Of a stretch of DNA of 7,414 nt, positions 1 to 7,414 are shown piece after piece. A model generated the notes under the pieces. That model saw only the letters and a program-made list of their open reading frames with translations. It made no database searches and was not told where the DNA came from. The DNA is from a virus. Lineage: Duplodnaviria > Heunggongvirae > Uroviricota > Caudoviricetes. Numbering within the stretch: position 1 is the stretch's first letter; every line of letters starts with the position of its first letter. The stretch lies in IMG/VR virus record IMGVR_UViG_2713896831_000005, positions 1 through 7,414 of that record; one strand, written 5' to 3'. A program made the position numbers and the translations under genes.

Positions 1-912
1 ATGATAACCAACATCACCACAGCAAAATGGTTTTTTCCAGCCTTTGATGCAGGTTTAATGTTAGTATTTTCATCCGCAGTCACGCTCTATTGCATCAATA
101 GGATCAGCAAGAAATTCCCAGATACTAACGAATTACTACCATTTTTTGGTTTAATCGTTTGGGTCTTGTTGATCGTCGGCTACTATGTCGTTCGCTACAA
201 CAATAACTATCAGACTTCATTATCAATAATCGTAGCCGGTTCGATAGCAGGTATGGGATGGTGGATACAGTTCATCACTTCAGCCGCAAGCGATCGCAGA
301 AAGCATACCCTCAATGTAGTGCTAAGCACCAGAACATGTACTGAATATCAAACAAATCTGCGTAACTTTACTCATCTGTGGAGAGGCAATCGTCACATAC
401 CCAAAGAACTTTGTGAATGGAGAGACGATCCAGATAACCCTAAATTTCAAAACGCAAATGTTCCAAAAGAGGTCGTGGACGGCATAAACGGGATGCTATA
501 TATCCTCAACTTCTTCGAGTTTTTGGCACAAGGTATCAAAGCAAATGACCTTGATGATAAATTACTCCGCGAATGCTTTTGTGGTTTTTTGGAAGGATTA
601 GAAAGACGAGCATATTTCATTTTGTCAGAGGCACAAAAGAAGGATGAGCGTTTTTTTGAAGGTATTGTTTTCTTATGCAAGCGTTGGAACAATGATAAGT
701 CAATCATAGAAAAGCATCGTCATTCAGCCCCTCCGGTTGATATAGGGATAAGCTATCCTCCTAAAGATGAAGTGATGGAAATGTTAGGAATGACCTCACA
801 CGACCATCAGTCTCGCAAACGTAGACGTAGAAAAACAAAAAAAGTTACAACTACTCAACCTGCAGCCAACACGAGCCCTCTGAATTCATCTCAAATAGCC
901 TCATCAGGATAA
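1..912 (+). CDS. Hypothetical membrane-anchored protein (303 aa) with three predicted N-terminal transmembrane helices, a soluble domain of about 200 aa and a poly-basic C-terminal tail; function unknown
   Basis: Uninterrupted 303-codon ORF from the first base of the window to a TAA stop at 910..912. Hydrophobic segments in the translation (FFPAFDAGLMLVFSSAVTLYCI, LLPFFGLIVWVLLIVGYYVV, SLSIIVAGSIAGMGWWIQFITSA) look like three transmembrane helices, and the C-terminus is strongly basic (SRKRRRRKTKKVTT). The region is visibly AT-rich compared with the tail genes. The ATG sits at the window edge, so the true start and its ribosome-binding site cannot be checked. No family was recognised from memory. 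Confidence 0.55.
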   Translation: MITNITTAKWFFPAFDAGLMLVFSSAVTLYCINRISKKFPDTNELLPFFGLIVWVLLIVGYYVVRYNNNYQTSLSIIVAGSIAGMGWWIQFITSAASDRRKHTLNVVLSTRTCTEYQTNLRNFTHLWRGNRHIPKELCEWRDDPDNPKFQNANVPKEVVDGINGMLYILNFFEFLAQGIKANDLDDKLLRECFCGFLEGLERRAYFILSEAQKKDERFFEGIVFLCKRWNNDKSIIEKHRHSAPPVDIGISYPPKDEVMEMLGMTSHDHQSRKRRRRKTKKVTTTQPAANTSPLNSSQIASSG

Positions 913-937
913 CCACCTGATATGGCAGTTAAAGGAG

Positions 938-963
938 AAAGCCCGCTGATACGGGTTTTCTTC
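938..963 (+). terminator. Weak candidate intrinsic terminator downstream of the 1..912 ORF
   Basis: Short hairpin (CCCG 942..945, loop CTGATA, CGGG 952..955, extendable with A-T and G-U pairs) followed by TTTTCTTC. The stem is short and the T-tract partly overlaps it, so this is weak. Confidence 0.25.
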
Positions 964-1228
964 AATCCTTAGGCTTTCAGCTGAGTTCGGTATAGCTTGA
1001 TCCTGAATTCCCCATCTATCGCGCATATCAGCAGCGAGCAATCACAGGCTGAAAGCGACACGTCCACAACAAGTAGCGCCCCCTAGATTATCCCTTCCCT
1101 GAAATGTGAACGCGCAGCGCGCATGAAGTAAGTCGCTGATGGCTGGCTGATAAGCTGCTGATCGAGGGAAATCCTTTTTTCAACATAATCAGCCGCAGGT
1201 GAAGGAAAGCCCATGTTTACGCCCTCTC

Positions 1229-1257
1229 TTGAATACCGGATAAAAACACAGCATAAG
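1229..1257 (+). promoter_or_regulatory. Putative sigma70 promoter for the DinI-like gene
   Basis: TTGAAT at 1229..1234 as a -35 element, a 17-bp spacer, then CATAAG at 1252..1257 as a -10 element (4 of 6 matches to TATAAT), immediately upstream of the LexA-box-like site. Assigned by eye only. Confidence 0.3.
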
Positions 1258-1277
1258 TACTGCATATCCATCCAGTA
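1258..1277 (+). promoter_or_regulatory. Candidate LexA (SOS) operator upstream of the DinI-like gene
   Basis: TACTGCATATCCATCCAGTA has the CTG-N10-CAG core of the E. coli LexA box (consensus TACTGTATATATATACAGTA), with 15 of 20 positions matching. It sits just downstream of the putative -10 and ends right where the ribosome-binding site begins, the usual position for an SOS operator. Confidence 0.5.
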
Positions 1278-1292
1278 AAGGAGCAATGAGCA

Positions 1293-1535
1293 ATGTTCGT
1301 GGAACTCGTTTATGACAAAAGGAATTTTGATGGCCTGCCCGGTGCAAAAGATATCATTCTGGGCGAATTTACCAAGAGGGTTCACCGGATTTTCCCCGAT
1401 GCTGAGGTCCGGGTTAAACCGATGATGATTCTGCCAGCAATCAACACTGACGCGAGCAAACATGAGAAAGAACAGATAAGTCGTACTGTTCAGGAAATGT
1501 TTGAAGAGGCTGATATGTGGCTGGTTGAAAGTTAA
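1293..1535 (+). CDS. dinI: DinI-family protein (DNA-damage-inducible protein I-like, 80 aa)
   Basis: 80-aa ORF with AAGGAG at 1278..1283, 9 nt before the ATG. The translation has the DinI-family size and conserved blocks (central FPD motif and a C-terminal KHEKEQISRTVQEMFEEADMWLVES resembling the KEDKQRISEILQETWESADDWFV region of E. coli DinI, as recalled from memory). The LexA-box-like site upstream fits an SOS-regulated dinI paralogue, which lambdoid prophages commonly carry. Confidence 0.85.
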   Translation: MFVELVYDKRNFDGLPGAKDIILGEFTKRVHRIFPDAEVRVKPMMILPAINTDASKHEKEQISRTVQEMFEEADMWLVES

Positions 1536-1795
1536 CCATAAAACGCAGCCCCAAACACCTGTGAACAACTACATCTAGTGTTGCAAAATGAAAAACACAA
1601 CTACATGGAACTTTTATCATTAAAAGGTGTCTGATTTTTTACAATCTACTATCAGAAACTAATCTTTAGTAAAAAATGCCATCTGATTACAAGTGACTGA
1701 TGAGTATAAACTCATTAATATGTACTAACGGTTACCAATACGGTAAACTTGTTGCAGTATCTGAAAGAAAACCACACAACAAAAGGGGGCATGTT

Positions 1796-2266
1796 ATGGC
1801 TTATTCTGCAGCAGCAGTTGCTAATGCCTTCATTGAGAAGGCGAACAAAGGTGAACTTTCTGAGCTGACTCCCATGAAGCTCCAGAAGTTGCTTTTCTAT
1901 ACACAATCTTGGCACTTGAAGCTGTGCAATGGCAGACCTCTTTTTGATGATCTCTTTGCACGCTGGAAGTTTGGCCCAGTAATACCGCCGCTCTATCACA
2001 TGCTAAAAAAATACGGGTCTGGTGAAATACAAGAACCCATTAGCATAATTATTGACTCAAATGGAGAGTGGAAGCGTATTACCCCCACGATACAGAAAGA
2101 CGATGCTGACGCCATGAAACTGATTGATAAAATCATAGAGGTCTATGGCGGATATTCAGGAACAGCATTATCAAATATGACTCATGCACCTGGTAGTGCC
2201 TGGAGCCGTGGAGCTGTTGACGGTGGTCCAATCACTCATACGGACATGGCTGAACATATCCATTAA
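1796..2266 (+). CDS. DUF4065 / Panacea-domain protein (PanA/SocA/GepA-like, COG3600), 156 aa; candidate antitoxin or anti-defence component
   Basis: The ORF track gives 1700..2266, but the first in-frame ATG with a ribosome-binding site is at 1796 (AAAAGGGGG at 1781..1789, 6 nt spacer). From that start the protein begins MAYSAAAVANAFIEKA and contains TPMKLQKLLFYTQSWHLKLCNGRPLFDDLFARWKFGPVIPPLYHMLKKYG, matching my recollection of the conserved DUF4065 core (MKLQKLLYFAQ ... PLF ... W..GPV ... Y). The stop overlaps the next start as TAATG. Confidence 0.7.
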   Translation: MAYSAAAVANAFIEKANKGELSELTPMKLQKLLFYTQSWHLKLCNGRPLFDDLFARWKFGPVIPPLYHMLKKYGSGEIQEPISIIIDSNGEWKRITPTIQKDDADAMKLIDKIIEVYGGYSGTALSNMTHAPGSAWSRGAVDGGPITHTDMAEHIH

Positions 2267-2652
2267 TGTCTGAATTTGAACGAATCTCCATCCCCAGCGG
2301 CACTAGATTAGGTGCCGCTCCCATTTCCAGCTCAGAAGATGAGCCTCCTTCATCTGAAGTATCCACTCGCGGTGATAATGTAACCCCGCAAAGCGTTGAA
2401 GATGCGAAATCTTATCGTAAGTTGCGGGAAATTTTCGCCGAAAAGGCTTATAAGGTAGCAAAAAAATCACTTTATGGATGGGCGATTCTACTTTTCGCAC
2501 AAGGATGGTTTTCACTGATTGGTATTCAGATTTTCTCTGACAAAGTCCTCATAGCTATAACAACCGCTGTAACACTTAACGTCTTCGCCGCTTTCCTTGG
2601 TGTAATAAGAGGACTGTTTCCTTCAGGTAAGTCCTCCGGGGAAAAAGAGTAG
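2266..2652 (+). CDS. Small two-transmembrane-helix protein (128 aa) translationally coupled to the DUF4065 gene; candidate membrane-acting toxin or effector
   Basis: The ATG overlaps the upstream stop by one base (TAATG at 2264..2268) and has no separate Shine-Dalgarno, which suggests translational coupling. The N-terminal ~65 residues are hydrophilic and acidic (SSEDEPPSSEVSTRGDNVTPQSVEDAK), followed by two hydrophobic helices (LYGWAILLFAQGWFSLIGIQIF and VLIAITTAVTLNVFAAFLGVIRGLF). The ORF ends 69 nt before a hairpin terminator. Confidence 0.6.
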   Translation: MSEFERISIPSGTRLGAAPISSSEDEPPSSEVSTRGDNVTPQSVEDAKSYRKLREIFAEKAYKVAKKSLYGWAILLFAQGWFSLIGIQIFSDKVLIAITTAVTLNVFAAFLGVIRGLFPSGKSSGEKE

Positions 2653-2720
2653 CTTTTCAACCAATCCGCCGTGACTGGCAATCATTCAATACTCGCACTA
2701 TCAAAAGTTTACTAGCCAAA

Positions 2721-2766
2721 CCGCAGCACGTCCTGCATACGTCGTGTCTGCGGTTTTTCTTTTTTG
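2721..2766 (+). terminator. Rho-independent terminator between the convergent accessory operon and tfa
   Basis: Inverted repeat CCGCAGCACG ... CGTGTCTGCGG (2721..2753, one bulged base) followed by TTTTTCTTTTTT (2754..2765). It lies between the plus-strand ORF ending at 2652 and the minus-strand tfa ending at 2768. The U-tract is on the plus strand, so termination is expected mainly for the plus-strand operon and only weakly for the minus strand. Confidence 0.5.
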
Positions 2767-2767
2767 C

Positions 2768-3352
2768 TTACATTGTGTCTGGTTCTTCCGGCCACTCAAT
2801 ATCAGGTGCAGTTGATGTATCAACACGGTTCAGCAACACCCGATACTTTTTCCAGGCTTCCAGCAATGAGTTTTCTTCCTCCGTTGCGATTTCCAGATCT
2901 ACAGCATCCTGAAGTGGCGCAATATGCTCACTGGCTACCTGCATCAGGTTGTTTTTTGTTTCTTCCGCCTCCCGGATCCGGAACAGTTTTTCTGCTTCCG
3001 TATCCTTCAACCAGGCTGTGCCGTTCCACTTCTGATATTCCCCTTCCGGCGATAACCAGGTAACATTTTCCGGTAACGGACCGAGTTCAGAAATAAATAA
3101 CGCGTCGCCGGAAGCCACGTCATAAACCGTTTTACCCCGATGATCTTCAACGAGATGCCACGATGACTCATCACTGTTGAAAACAGCCACGAAGCCAGCC
3201 GGAATATCTGGCGGTGCAATATCGGTACTGTTTGCAGGCAGACCTGTATGAGGTGGAATATATGCGTCACCGTCACCAATAAATTCATTAGTTCCGGCCA
3301 GCAGATTATAAATTTTTATGGTCCGTGGTTGTTCACTCATTCTGAATGCCAT
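2768..3352 (-). CDS. tfa: Tail fibre assembly protein Tfa (194 aa), lambda Tfa-like chaperone
   Basis: 194-aa minus-strand ORF. The translation ([62 protein letters not shown]...) is near-identical over most of its length to phage lambda Tfa as I recall it. Its start overlaps the stf stop (TAATG on the minus strand at 3350..3354), the expected stf-tfa arrangement. Confidence 0.95.
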
Positions 3353-6300
3353 TATGCAAGCCTCACAATATAGTTAAATGCGATGTTTTTGACGGTGTTT
3401 TCCGCGTTACCAGCAGCGTTAACGGTGATGGTGTGTCCATGTGAACCAATCGCAACGGAGTGCGTATGAGCACCAATACCGACAGTATGCGCGTGTGCAC
3501 CTGCAGATGCTGCTGTGCCGGACAGTGAATGGCTATGATTACCATCTGTACTGGTATTCGCTAACCACCCCGTAGACATACCTACTGAGCCTTGTACACC
3601 CCAGGTATTTTGACCTGAGCTTGTATAACCATATTGATAAGTATCTTTAAAAACACTGGGGTTAAATCGACGGCCATCTCTATGGCTGTGATTACCAGCT
3701 GCATTCGTGCTGCCACTTAAACTATGGGTATGCGCACCAGTGTTATTCGTGGATTTAGTGCCGTAATCAAACGACGATGTGGTTTTCGTCCCCAAATCCG
3801 TACTGGATGCGCTGGCGCTGTGGGTATGCGATTTAATGCCATCCTGTTCCTGAGACAATACGGCACGACCACTGGCGGGCTTGCCCTTAATCGTCCAGCC
3901 ACGCAAATCAGGGATCACGCCTGACGGATAAGCGGCAGCAAGTTTCGGGTAGGCAGATTTGTCAAAAGTCTGCCCCTGCATCAGGGCATAACCAAACGGA
4001 ACGGTATCTGATGGCCACGGGATTGGTGCGCCGACTGGGTAGCTTTCTGGTGGAAGATTTTTCGAGGTATAAACTTCTGCCCAGTCTTCCTCAAAACCAT
4101 AACCGTCTCTTGAAGAACGGTAGAACAGACCACCATTTCTGTAATGCGCCTTCATCTGCAAGGTCCGGCAACTTCCGACTCCGGTATAGAAGTTAACCAG
4201 AATATAGCTGTCGCCAGAGCGGGTGACATTATAAGCGCCTGATTCGGCATTCCAGGGAACGCCACCATCCGCATCGGCATATGTATCCGTTGCCCTTCTG
4301 GCAAAAGCAGCCACATGCGCGGCGGTTAAAGTAATATCTCTGGAACCATCAAACTCAACACCAGAAACCCGTCTTGGCGTTTGCAGCTTTGTTGCTGTTA
4401 ATGCATTACCGTTCAGACTTGCGGACAGTTTGGTTCCAATAACCAGTTCGCCGGTTGCGTTATCAATAGCAAACGGTCTTAATGTATTCCAGCCACCATA
4501 AACATCACCTTGATTGGTAAGCAGCAGGTAAGTTTTAGCGCCATCATTACGCCATAATGCCCCATACTCCCCACCTATCATTCGAATCTGATTACCACCA
4601 CGCGCTACAATTTCGTCTGTGGCAAAAAGTTTTTTGCACGACAAGTTATCGTTAACGATTAACGAATGAGACTCATAAAAACCACGCCCACTCTTAAAAT
4701 CAAGGATAACGTCCGCCGCGATACATTCAGTCGCCGGATTTGTTGCCCCAAACTTATAGGTCGTATCATTAACAACGAGATCAGCACCAGGTGCGGATAT
4801 TGACAGGCCATCTTCGATAAACGCAAAAACAGGGAAAGCAGCGCCATCAACATAGAACACAGAGCGCAAATCATCGCCCTTATTACTCATCATTATTGAG
4901 TGGATGGCTCGTTCATTGTTTTGATATTGCCAGAACATTCCATAAGCATAACGCCCCCTGTCAGTCCAGCCACCAGGCATAACAAATCCGTTAAACTCGC
5001 AGTTATTCATCGGATCGCCTGCGGTTCGCGTTGCCGTGGTGATAATGACCCTTGATGCCAGTTCGCTTACTGAGCCAGCAGAACGCATAACAACAACAGG
5101 GTAATATTTTCCAGATGTTGCACCTGCAGGAGCGTTAACCCGCACATAACGCATACCACGCTTATCAGCAAAGTCTGTTTTACTGACCGCGTTAATGTTG
5201 TTCAGGAAGCGTCCCTTATCGGGTATATCAGCGCCGTTCTGGTCTTTCTGCAGACGTTTCTCTGCATTGTCATAGGCTGATTTTACTGCCTTTGGCGTTG
5301 CCGCCAGCGTTTCAGACGTACTGTTGGTCGCACTGCTGAGCTGTACTATCCCCTTTTTCGTCGTACTTGCATCCTCAAGCGCCACGGCGGATGCAATATC
5401 CTCTGCCCGTTTTGCCGCTGTCTCGGCGCGCGTTGCCGCGGATTCCGCCGTACTTTTGCTCTGTGCTGCCGCCGTCGCACTGCCAGCTGCCTCTGTCGCC
5501 TTCGTGGATGCTGTCGTGGCGCTGCCCTTCGCTGCGGACGCTTGTCTGGTCGCCTCATCTTTTGAAGCAGACGCCGATGATGCCGATGACGCCGCCGAAC
5601 TGGCGGACGATGCGGCAGCCGTTTTTGAGGATTCTGCGCTGGTTTCCGACGCTTTCGCGTTCGTCTCGGATGTCTTCGCTGCGGAAGCAGACCTCGCTGC
5701 TGCGCTGGCCTGTTCAGTGGCTTCGCCAGCCTTCGTTGTGGCTGTTGAAGCAGACGATGCGGCACTTTCTGCCGATTTTCCGGCGGCGGTGGCACTGGCT
5801 GAGGCCTGCCCGGCACTTGTTGACGCGGCACTGGCAGACGACGCAGCCGCTGTTTTTGAGCCTGCCGCAGCCGAGGCGCTCTGTCCCGCTGCCGTTTCAG
5901 AAGACCTGGCGTTTGTCTCAGACGTCTTTGCCGCCTTCGCGGAATTGCCTGCCGCCGTTGCCGAGGAAGCGGCACTACTGGCGCTTGATGATGCGTTCGT
6001 TTCTGATGATTTCGCTGCCTCTTTTGAGGCCGCCGCATCCCGTGCTGAGGTGGCTGCTTCTGACGCCTTCGTGGTCGCGGCGGATGCAGAAGTGGCTGCT
6101 GATTGTTGTGACGCTGCCGCATTCGTTTCTGACGTTTTCGCCGCAGCGGCACTGGTAGCTGCCGCGCTTTTTGAGGACTCTGCAGCAGCAGCACTTTTCG
6201 ATGCTTCACTGGCCTTTGTTGATGCCGTTCCTGCGCTGGAAGATGCTGACTGAGCCGACGACGCGGCCTGTCCGGCTGACGTGCTGGCTGCGCGTGCTGA

Positions 6301-6750
6301 GCCTGCAGCATCAGTCGCATGGGTTGCCGCCTCACGGGCTGATGTGCCGGCATCGCTGGCTGACTTCTTCGCGGCTGCCGTGTTCTGTGCCACCGCGGAC
6401 GCGTTACGCGCCACCTCTTCCACCATCAGTTCAAAACGGCGCAGTGCCTCAGGACGGGCATCATCCTCCGTCATGGCACCGAGAAAATCATTCAGCGTAC
6501 CGGGTCGGGAATCTTCATACACGGTGATGGTCCCGGCATGTGACGGCGGGAATCCCTCCACCAACAGAATAACGCTGTACTGACCGTACTCAACGTCCAT
6601 GCTGTAACGCCCGGCTTCATCCGGATTTTCTGAGGCCAGCGTGTTCACCACCACCGTGGTGCTGTTACGTTTTGCTTTCAGCTGGATTGTGCAGTTCTGT
6701 ACCGGTTTTCCTGTGCCGTCTTTCAGTACACCTGAAATCTTTACTGCCAT
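3352..6750 (-). CDS. stf: Side tail fibre protein Stf (about 1132 aa), full length, with a histidine-rich HxH-repeat C-terminal receptor-binding tip
   Basis: Long minus-strand ORF. The N-terminus ([60 protein letters not shown]...) matches lambda Stf as recalled. The ORF track starts at 6756 (MNM...), but the ATG at 6750 has GGGG 5 nt upstream and gives the canonical MAVKISG start, so 6750 is preferred. The middle is a long Ala/Ser/Thr-rich low-complexity shaft. The C-terminus carries multiple HxH motifs ([45 protein letters not shown]) and ends [11 protein letters not shown], as in lambda/T4 gp37-type fibre tips. Confidence 0.9.
5407..6408 (-). repeat. Internal low-complexity quasi-repeat region of stf (Ala/Ser/Thr-rich shaft with recurring KTSETNA-type units)
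   Basis: Stf residues about 117..450 are almost only A, S, T, K, E, Q and G, with recurring units such as [41 protein letters not shown] and [18 protein letters not shown]. The underlying DNA is GC-rich and stop-poor in every frame, which explains the long overlapping spurious ORFs at 5324..6353. Boundaries are approximate. Confidence 0.5.
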
Positions 6751-6760
6751 ATTCACCCCA

Positions 6761-6788
6761 CAAAAAAGCCCGCCTGAACCGGCGGGCT
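6761..6788 (-). terminator. Rho-independent terminator downstream of lom, immediately upstream of stf
   Basis: On the minus strand an 8-bp GC-rich stem (AGCCCGCC / GGCGGGCT, 6767..6788 on plus coordinates) with a 6-nt loop is followed by TTTTTT (plus-strand A-run at 6762..6767). It lies 27 nt after the lom stop and just before the stf ribosome-binding site. Confidence 0.55.
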
Positions 6789-6814
6789 GTCATAACACTG
6801 TGTTACCTGGCTAA

Positions 6815-7414
6815 TCAGAATTTATAACCGATACCCACGATGAAACCGTCAGTGCGCCAGTCACCACTGCCGGAGCCTTCATAAGCAATATCAATGGCCA
6901 CGGATTCGGTCGGGTTAAACTGCACGCCAGCCCCCCACGCCAGAGACGTGTTGCTGTGGCGACCGTCATCACTTCCGGTCAGCACATCGTGCTTTTTCCC
7001 CTTGTTGTCAGTTACGCGAAGATAATCCCCGGAGAAAGTCGACACACGGCTGTAAGCTACACCCGCCATCGCATACGCGCTGAACCATTCATTCACGCGC
7101 ACAGACGGCCCCGCCATTACGCTGAACCAGCGGTTACGAACGGAATCTTCATGCCAGCGGGTATCGCTGTAACGGGTCAGCTGGCGATTCTTGTCTCCTG
7201 CATAGCTGAATGACGTCACCAGCCCCAGTGTGTCCGTAAACTCATAACGGTATTTCACGTTAATCCCGTTCAGATCATCGCTGCCGGGGACGTTCGTCGA
7301 GGCATGAAGATACCCCGCGCTCAGCGTGGACTGATGTTCAGACGCCCATGCAGGCGCACCGGATACGGCCAGACAAATGGCTGCGGACAAAATTGCTGCA
7401 CAAACTTTACGCAT
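6815..7414 (-). CDS. lom: Lom outer-membrane protein (Ail/Lom/OmpX family beta-barrel, 199 aa)
   Basis: Minus-strand ORF with a signal-peptide-like N-terminus (MRKVCAAILSAAICLAVSGAPAWA). Conserved blocks match lambda Lom as recalled (GINVKYRYE, VMAGP, SAYAMAGVA, and the C-terminal DIAYEGSGSGDWRTDGFIVGIGYKF ending in aromatic F). The start codon is at the last bases of the window, so the promoter and ribosome-binding site are not visible. Confidence 0.95.
   Translation of the reverse strand: MRKVCAAILSAAICLAVSGAPAWASEHQSTLSAGYLHASTNVPGSDDLNGINVKYRYEFTDTLGLVTSFSYAGDKNRQLTRYSDTRWHEDSVRNRWFSVMAGPSVRVNEWFSAYAMAGVAYSRVSTFSGDYLRVTDNKGKKHDVLTGSDDGRHSNTSLAWGAGVQFNPTESVAIDIAYEGSGSGDWRTDGFIVGIGYKF

Follow-up and report, generated by a model that had tools for sequence, protein, structure and literature searches.

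A convergent accessory gene cassette at the tail-fibre end of a lambdoid Escherichia coli prophage

Gene content and orientation of the cassette

We have analysed a 7,414-nt stretch of viral DNA (the window; positions 1 to 7,414 of the IMG/VR virus record IMGVR_UViG_2713896831_000005, Caudoviricetes) in which a cassette of accessory genes, located at positions 1-2766, converges on the tail fibre genes of a lambdoid prophage. Four intact genes are present on the + strand of the cassette, as identified from six-frame open reading frames (ORFs) and Pfam, and encode a DUF4760 inner-membrane protein, a DinI family protein, the Panacea protein PanA and a putative membrane toxin, orf128, while the tail genes tfa, stf and lom occupy the − strand (Table 1). 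A preliminary description of this sequence had reported that the + strand genes oppose the late tail genes and that they form three unrelated modules; the former is borne out by the ORF listing and Pfam and the latter by the Pfam, PHROGs and NCBIfam assignments. It overlooked a UmuD/HumD-like pseudogene fragment on the − strand. Overall, the observation of an accessory cassette is confirmed and its interpretation supported. Positions 1-2766 very probably constitute the tail-proximal two thirds of a ∼4-kb moron segment which extends from tfa to the attachment site and is a mosaic of units with separate histories. The region is an ordinary cargo hotspot and not a new kind of system; the combination of cargo genes is previously undescribed and the genes themselves are already annotated generically in RefSeq. 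Coordinates to the left of the window refer to locus L001, the copy of the region in E. coli AH01.

Table 1. Features of the cassette and of the adjoining tail genes. Positions are those of the window unless L001 is stated.
Feature	Position	Strand	Evidence or remark
DUF4760 leader	L001 11707-11910 (window -293 to -90)		Promoter-like site, 11-codon upstream ORF, intrinsic terminator, then main ATG
DUF4760 inner-membrane protein gene	1-912	+	Pfam PF15956, E=2e-15; 303 aa from the window/RefSeq start
Short GC hairpin CCCG-CTGATA-CGGG, weak terminator candidate	938-959		T-rich tail on each strand; closes the DUF4760 unit on the right
UmuD/HumD-like S24-peptidase pseudogene fragment	∼984-1220	−	RefSeq annotation in identical loci; PHROG UmuD-like 4e-19 and NCBIfam HumD 2e-20, both partial
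LexA-box-like palindrome TACTGCATATCCATCCAGTA	1258-1277		Between the divergent umuD-like relic and dinI; perfect TACTG-N10-CAGTA
dinI, second of the accessory region, 80 aa	1293-1535	+	Pfam DinI (PF06183) 4.9e-20; PHROG 'RecA filament binding protein DinI'
dinI-panA spacer, AT-rich (34% GC)	1536-1795	+	Blocks conserved with Enterobacter
panA, stand-alone Panacea (SocA-like) antitoxin-type gene, 156 aa	1796-2266	+	Pfam SocA_Panacea (PF13274) 3.4e-20
orf128, putative PanT-type membrane toxin gene, 128 aa	2266-2652	+	PHROG 33656, 4e-43
Boundary element, dinI 3' flank with intrinsic terminator	2675-2768	+	Hairpin 2718-2756, T-run 2757-2768; abuts tfa stop
tfa (tail fibre assembly)	2768-3352	−	Pfam Caudo_TAP 2.8e-44; conserved right flank of the variable region
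stf	3352-6756	−	1134 aa
lom	6815-7414	−	

Base composition and codon usage

G+C content is 0.428 in 1-2766 and 0.528 in 2767-7414. At third codon positions (GC3), the cassette genes have values of 0.39 (DUF4760), 0.41 (PanA), 0.37 (orf128) and 0.48 (DinI). The corresponding values are 0.44 (tfa), 0.48 (stf; 0.42 in its C-terminal half), 0.60 (lom) and 0.56-0.68 (J to M) among the tail genes, and 0.58-0.65 in host genes. A codon index resembling the codon adaptation index and referenced to eight flanking host genes gave 0.44, 0.455, 0.43 and 0.59 for DUF4760, PanA, orf128 and DinI, respectively. On this index the tail genes score 0.54 (tfa), 0.51 (stf), 0.65 (lom) and 0.57-0.65 (J to M), and the host genes 0.59-0.77. 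The compositional contrast is thus real for DUF4760, PanA and orf128, yet graded, with tfa and the stf C-terminus intermediate. The cassette is, as stated earlier, the more AT-rich part of the window, and DinI is not set apart from the tail genes.

Protein composition on the right-hand side, with its Ala/Ser-rich stf and beta-barrel Lom, is extremely unlikely to be the source of this contrast in place of a foreign left side. The high G+C content on the right is partly an amino acid effect, the Ala/Ser-rich segment of stf having a G+C content of 0.61 driven by a value of 0.74 at second codon positions (GC2), and the GC3 of tfa and of the C-terminal half of stf (0.42-0.44) is near that of the cargo genes. 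However, the codon index separates DUF4760, PanA and orf128 (0.43-0.46) from J to M and lom (0.57-0.65) as well as from the host genes, GC3 separates them likewise, and the pattern of presence and absence described below independently identifies the segment as accessory.

Prophage context and variability of the slot

The sequence 1-2766 is 100% identical in E. coli AH01 and 14 further complete genomes and 99.7% identical in one more, the full 2766 bp being found in 16 of 5426 complete E. coli genomes. In the same set, tfa-like sequence occurs at ∼16,000 places in 5240 genomes, and at megablast sensitivity no genome carries the DUF4760 gene alone or panA-orf128 alone. In AH01 a lambdoid prophage of 46 kb separates yjjG from prfC and carries the cassette at one of its ends, with the integrase at the yjjG end and J-lom-stf-tfa, the cassette and a further DinI gene at the prfC end. 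The proposed correspondence with the position of the lambda b-region therefore stands, the slot lying at the end of the prophage away from the integrase. The two prophage junctions have an 11-bp sequence, TTGTACATAAT, in common, a match for which ∼0.04 occurrences are expected by chance according to our own estimate (search space divided by 4^11). The accessory region spans ∼4.0 kb from attachment site to tfa, of which the window contains the right-hand 2.77 kb, the remaining ∼1.2 kb extending beyond the left edge of the window to the attachment site beside prfC.

prfC adjoins the cassette in every locus inspected, and the order prfC-dinI-DUF4760-dinI-panA-orf128 is found in 24 of the 24 contigs read which encode an identical DUF4760 protein, with tfa next in most. 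A few carriers, among them L029 and L034, have lost neighbouring tail or head genes (tfa itself in L034), for example by deletions that join tfa to terminase genes or remove stf-lom-J, while the cassette and the prfC junction are intact. As cassette and junction persist where tail genes are deleted, the cargo outlives the prophage.

The slot was compared in seven related lambdoid prophages and phages with conserved J-lom-stf(-tfa). Among those retaining J-lom-stf-tfa, the slot holds only dinI in strain 17-07187, genes for a GIY-YIG protein and a type II restriction-modification (R-M) system in R10, genes for a Mn-catalase, a ferritin-like protein, YciG and a methyltransferase in NZRM4169, and an S-adenosylmethionine (SAM) methyltransferase gene in IHE3034 and an ST131 strain. 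dinI alone is present in EDL933, where tfa is a remnant only, and in phage mEp460, which has no annotated tfa there. Cargo thus differs among the relatives while the J-lom-stf(-tfa) flank is conserved, as had been suggested for this position, composition and codon usage are non-uniform across the window, and the gene set is not conserved at the slot. The slot behaves as a cargo hotspot.

A conserved terminator and a duplicated dinI flank bound the cassette

The terminator previously placed between the cassette and tfa is borne out by the sequence. The hairpin is followed by TTTTTCTTTTTT, which reaches the tfa stop codon, and folds on the + strand with −23.3 kcal/mol (z = −4.8), a value equalled by none of 200 shuffled sequences. 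When the same hairpin is read on the − strand, the U-tract is poor; with its T-run on the + strand, the hairpin is therefore expected chiefly to terminate cassette transcripts. Our pattern scanner overlooked this terminator owing to its long loop, and Rfam contains no family for it. Among the transcription-unit signals of the cassette, the terminator at 2718-2768 is well supported and that at 938-959 is weak, while the promoters are consensus-like only.

The 90 bp at 2675-2764 are conserved in ∼600 E. coli genomes and in phage mEp460, and in the relatives 17-07187, EDL933 and mEp460 this element forms the 3' flank of a dinI gene facing tfa or stf directly. Its identification as attP was considered and rejected, as dinI sits between the element and the host junction in prophages. 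AH01 carries the dinI 3' flank twice, 3434 bp apart, at L001 11241-11313 and at window 2675-2766, the outer copy, which follows the outer dinI, being degenerate, with a mutated hairpin arm and no T-run. Because the flank is duplicated, all sequence between the two copies is extra with respect to a minimal dinI-terminator-tfa layout. In strain C1, no more than 38 bp separate dinI from a homologue of 2662-2709, and panA-orf128 is absent from this junction, indicating that the 1.1-kb panA-orf128 segment sits between dinI and the dinI terminator. Both arms of the C1 hairpin are changed in a compensatory manner such that pairing is kept, and R10 keeps nothing of the element beside tfa except the hairpin and T-run, the upstream sequence being unrelated. 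Thus, the terminator is the constant boundary of a variable region, and its history is that of the dinI unit or of the tfa boundary and not that of the newly added cargo. Enterobacter likewise carries the dinI-panA-orf128 trio, with a continuous DNA identity of 68% from the LexA-box region into panA, and the trio is therefore old. Combined, the duplicated dinI 3' flank and the C1 arrangement, in which dinI abuts the flank, support the stepwise accretion proposed at the outset.

Derivation of the cassette from the residual end of another prophage or integrative element, once present in tandem at prfC and the source of the second dinI, the umuD-like relic and the flank copy, is quite improbable. 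In favour of it, there are two dinI genes, two copies of their 3' flank and a pseudogenised umuD-like gene, and humD-dinI pairs do occur at the ends of unrelated prophage types (e14/Mu-like and lambda-like). However, no second integrase, att repeat or structural-gene remnant was found between prfC and tfa, the outer flank copy breaks off right at the hairpin, beyond which the sequence is unrelated and is not tfa, and the arrangement is shared by 24 of 24 loci, even where the rest of the prophage has decayed. The distinction between a tandem leftover and accretion through inter-phage recombination is in any case largely semantic, and the latter is the reading that we retain.

dinI genes, the umuD-like relic and the dinI-panA spacer

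The umuD-like relic retains ∼43 N-terminal codons in frame (1083-1211), followed by an internal stop, and its 3' third is missing; lacking the catalytic C-terminal domain of a full-length S24 peptidase, it is a pseudogene. An intact umuD/humD-like homologue lies beside dinI in Nissle 1917 and GDSC2BY4G, and the humD'-dinI segment (982-1526) shares 83-92% identity with humD-dinI modules found at the termini of prophages of other types. The LexA-box-like palindrome is located 16 nt upstream of the dinI ATG, and 0.14 such sites are expected by chance per window when one mismatch is allowed. Family sequence and probable LexA-box control both place the window DinI in the DinI family, of which it is not the equivalog of chromosomal DinI (NCBIfam score of 38 bits against a cut-off of 111). 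To the left of the window, an outer DinI-like gene (L001 10969-11313) directly adjoins the prophage-prfC junction, and a CTGT-N8-ACAG LexA-type box, read directly from the sequence, is located upstream of it.

Within the dinI-panA spacer, two blocks have been kept in Enterobacter against an overall identity of 68%, one a weak promoter-like sequence, GTGACT-17-TAATAT (1693-1721; 8 of 12 consensus positions matched), and the other an inverted repeat, GGTTACC-N5-GGTAAAC (1730-1736/1742-1748). These blocks (1693-1748) could be a promoter and an operator or 5' untranslated region hairpin for panA-orf128. Rfam contains no family for the spacer. A terminator scan detected no terminator-like site between dinI and panA, and SOS-driven read-through into panA-orf128 is therefore possible.

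panA-orf128 resembles a PanAT toxin-antitoxin pair

PanA carries the Panacea (DUF4065/SocA) domain that defines PanAT systems, its Pfam score being 73.5 bits against a cut-off of 25.7, and also matches NCBIfam SocA (3.9e-24), below the equivalog cut-off. An alternative start at 1700, giving a 188-aa PanA, was rejected, as homology with three other loci begins at 1796. The panA stop and orf128 start overlap by 1 nt (TAATG). orf128, which belongs to no Pfam, NCBIfam or PADLOC family, has two C-terminal hydrophobic, transmembrane (TM) helices. Across 27 homologues its N-terminus is variable and acidic, while an amphipathic pre-membrane helix (R.LRE.F..KAYKV) and the second TM helix (TLN..AAFLGVIRGLFP) are near-invariant.

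Relatives of orf128 number ∼200 across Enterobacterales, none of them a named protein, and a Panacea gene lies directly upstream of the orf128 homologue in every locus inspected, inside prophage DNA. Pairs with an orf128 identity of 44-59% occur in Proteus, Enterobacter, Pantoea, Providencia, Serratia and Stx2a-converting phages, so that a tight bicistronic pair, as is characteristic of PanAT, is conserved across lineages. In Pantoea and Serratia the pair has the integrase or umuDC on one side and the tail tip genes on the other; in one Pantoea dispersa locus (L048 620-3423) it lies directly beside intact umuDC-like genes at a prophage end. In the Stx2a-type phage Lys12581Vzw (L057 1931-5381), a SocA/PanA-orf128 pair of 59% identity immediately follows cI and a BsuBI-type R-M system. 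The immunity-region slot beside cI is the usual home of lysogen-expressed exclusion genes, for example lambda rexAB.

Membrane toxins with a charged N-terminal part and C-terminal TM helices have been validated as targets of neutralisation by PanA, and stand-alone Panacea contacts the unstructured N-terminus of the toxin and the helix preceding its TM region (PMC8832971, PMC10440598). The anatomy of orf128 is compatible with that of these published membrane PanTs. The window pair further resembles PanAT systems in its antitoxin-then-toxin order, in a small overlap, as in many tabulated pairs, in its prophage location, and in the placement of a stand-alone Panacea gene immediately upstream of that for a small protein whose N-terminus is charged or unstructured and precedes a short helix and TM helices at the C-terminal end (Kurata et al. 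2022, PMC8832971; Ernits et al. 2023, PMC10440598). By analogy with these systems, panA-orf128 is most likely a type II PanAT toxin-antitoxin (TA) pair. Assignment of orf128 to PanT cluster T6 was dropped, as this cluster contains MazF-like RNases and 'terminase' entries and no accession matched; the accessions of orf128 relatives looked up matched none of the T3 or T6 entries examined in the supplement of Kurata et al. In sequence searches of the PDB, PanA gave only spurious matches to Kelch-like and designed proteins and orf128 gave none.

The DUF4760 gene and its leader

The DUF4760 ORF is probably cut by the window edge and most likely begins at an in-frame ATG 90 nt to the left, giving a protein of 333 aa. 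Homologues of 330-343 aa with 65-78% identity cover 98-100% of this longer form, including a conserved MYRWIK N-terminus. The 333-aa protein has four N-terminal hydrophobic TM segments, and its AlphaFold2 model (pLDDT 83) comprises an all-helical domain, in which many polar residues are invariant across homologues, and a tail that is basic and disordered. The protein has no match in PADLOC or NCBIfam, sequence searches of the PDB gave no relative, and the PHROGs matches have no functional annotation. The hairpin at 938-959, between DUF4760 and the umuD-like relic, resembles a hairpin at L001 11471-11492 on the left side of this unit. At prophage ends, homologues of DUF4760 stand as solitary genes, placed immediately past the integrase in Cronobacter and in further E. 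coli strains, while a Pantoea homologue is convergent with umuDC, resembling the window arrangement with the umuD-like relic. A Pantoea ananatis locus (L024 5001-7664) carries DUF4760 directly beside intact umuDC-like genes at a prophage end. The Pantoea loci suggest a recurrent linkage of DUF4760 and panA-orf128 with SOS-mutagenesis modules.

The most unusual item of the region, the leader of DUF4760, lies outside the 1-2766 interval. A promoter-like site at L001 11707-11736, consensus-like only, precedes a short upstream ORF (uORF) encoding MRNFEIGYGEG* and a strong terminator hairpin, AAACTCCTC..GAGGAGTTT, with a run of eight T residues. In 13 of 14 DUF4760 loci, drawn from gamma-proteobacteria of the Enterobacterales and the genera Pseudomonas, Stutzerimonas, Halomonas, Shewanella and Rheinheimera, a short uORF ending in [IV]G[YFVT]G[EAL]G-stop, with synonymous codon variation, is followed by an intrinsic terminator, the sequence of which differs between genera with hairpin and T-run retained. 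Judged from this pattern, the leader looks like a conserved leader-peptide attenuator. It has no Rfam family, and no relevant paper was found for the motif.

Discussion

Positional counterparts of the slot occupied by the cassette are the lambda b-region and, in O157-type prophages, the exchangeable effector loci (EELs), which form the "very end" of lambda-like prophages of Shiga toxin-producing E. coli (STEC) and hold type III secretion system (T3SS) effectors (PMC8112680). As in these regions, the slot follows J-lom-stf-tfa at the end opposite the integrase and is non-essential, variable and transcribed against the tail operon. It differs from the lambda b-region in gene content, and with no lambda among the three phage records matching by megablast there is no detectable DNA similarity; in contrast to the EELs of enterohaemorrhagic E. 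coli (EHEC) and STEC, the cassette encodes no T3SS effectors. The DUF4760 unit resembles the morons of HK97/HK022-type lambdoid phages, which are supplementary transcription units inserted among conserved genes, in being present or absent among relatives, in its distinct composition and in being flanked by a promoter-like site and terminator hairpins; the HK97 gp15 moron (in work cited in PMC11364771) likewise encodes a membrane protein. Unlike classic morons, the unit has an upstream leader ORF and terminator; its expression in the lysogen is inferred, and panA-orf128 has no terminator of its own and would use the dinI/tfa boundary terminator. Prophage dinI modules such as those of mEp460 (gp21, 'RecA filament binding protein DinI') and EDL933 share the location at the tail-fibre end and the same 3' flank and terminator, and as in prophage dinI/umuD/humD modules a LexA box precedes the window dinI. 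The cassette differs from the dinI or humD modules of mEp460 and P1 (HumD) in having two dinI copies, a dead umuD-like partner and a TA-like pair between dinI and the terminator.

Several observations weigh against reading the cassette as a mosaic of separately acquired morons with a role in defence. DinI is not compositionally distinct (codon index 0.59). Every carrier examined has a single fixed arrangement at a single site, and the accretion steps are consequently deduced from other lineages, with no intermediates in this one. The "panAT insertion" could equally be a loss in strain C1, as the trio exists in Enterobacter. No credible match to a PADLOC v2 defence family was obtained, the sole listed match being that of DinI to a phospholipase effector (E=0.0086), and for DUF4760 there is neither a characterised relative nor a fold match that is informative, the literature offering one incidental mention. 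orf128 has no Pfam family through which to compare it with the validated PanTs (those of E. coli STEC O31, WP_000019185.1, Bartonella, Helicobacter and B. choladocola), to which it was likened by published description only. Finally, the promoters are consensus-level guesses, the scanner having found fewer sites than in shuffled sequence.

On the reading that we favour, all cassette units would be transcribed towards the tail operon and be stopped by the single conserved terminator at the tfa boundary. DUF4760 would form a self-contained transcription unit with a promoter-like site, a leader ORF and terminator acting as an attenuator, and its own weak terminator, and it may encode a conditionally expressed membrane protein for superinfection exclusion or abortive defence, the most tentative step of the scheme. 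The truncated umuD/humD-like relic and the divergent dinI would share the LexA box, and DinI, from what is known of its family, would damp RecA co-protease activity after DNA damage. The orf128 toxin would act by depolarising or permeabilising the inner membrane, an effect that PanA would prevent by binding to the toxin at its N-terminal region and pre-TM helix, and panA-orf128 may be transcribed both from its own weak promoter and by read-through from the LexA-controlled dinI promoter.

Given the position and associations of the cassette, a role in defence or exclusion is plausible. With respect to the preliminary description of the region as a moron or defence hotspot, the accessory nature of the cargo is upheld, while the defence part finds no credible PADLOC match for any cassette protein. 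Alternatively, panA-orf128 and DUF4760 may serve the prophage itself, as an addiction or stabilisation module or as an accessory of lysis or membrane timing, and not host defence; we regard this as possible, if somewhat unlikely. TA pairs classically stabilise mobile DNA, the cassette persists where tail or head genes have been deleted, as expected of an addictive module, and the PADLOC result is in keeping with such a role. In contrast, the homologous pair of the Stx2a phage adjoins cI and an R-M system, the position of lysogen-expressed exclusion genes, R-M and GIY-YIG genes occupy the same tfa-proximal site in other prophages, and it has been argued that PanA serves defence-related TA networks as a sensor (PMC10440598). 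The one role does not preclude the other.

A more specific form of the defence reading is speculative and, in our estimation, unlikely. DUF4760 and its leader would be an undescribed prophage membrane effector gated by a nascent-peptide or translation-state attenuator, switching on, for example, when infection or stress perturbs translation termination and thereby leading to exclusion or abortive defence, while panA-orf128 would be an SOS-coupled membrane TA system, as it shares the LexA-controlled dinI transcription unit.

The cassette overturns nothing in current understanding and provides a further example of how, in lambdoid prophages, genes for host benefit or defence are swapped in and out between the tail fibre genes and the attachment site. 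It indicates that new cargo can enter upstream of a pre-existing boundary terminator which shields the tail operon from antisense read-through, and it represents a clean, small and naturally bounded test case for a PanA and membrane-toxin pair on E. coli prophages. DUF4760, a widespread and uncharacterised membrane protein at prophage ends with what looks like a conserved leader-peptide attenuator, is flagged for functional screening.

Additional observations on the tail genes

Two further observations concern the tail side of the window. The Rfam family IS009 (RF02111, a small RNA gene) matches 2811-3009 on the − strand with 226 bits against a gathering score of 117, wholly inside the tfa coding sequence, and this family may simply model prophage tfa DNA. 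In stf, an Ala/Ser/Thr-rich low-complexity stretch at 5250-6500 (− strand), the local G+C content of which (∼0.61) arises through second codon positions, yields long spurious ORFs on either strand, and the window stf differs from that of AH01 by at least 16 substitutions and a 2-codon difference in length despite the identical cassette.

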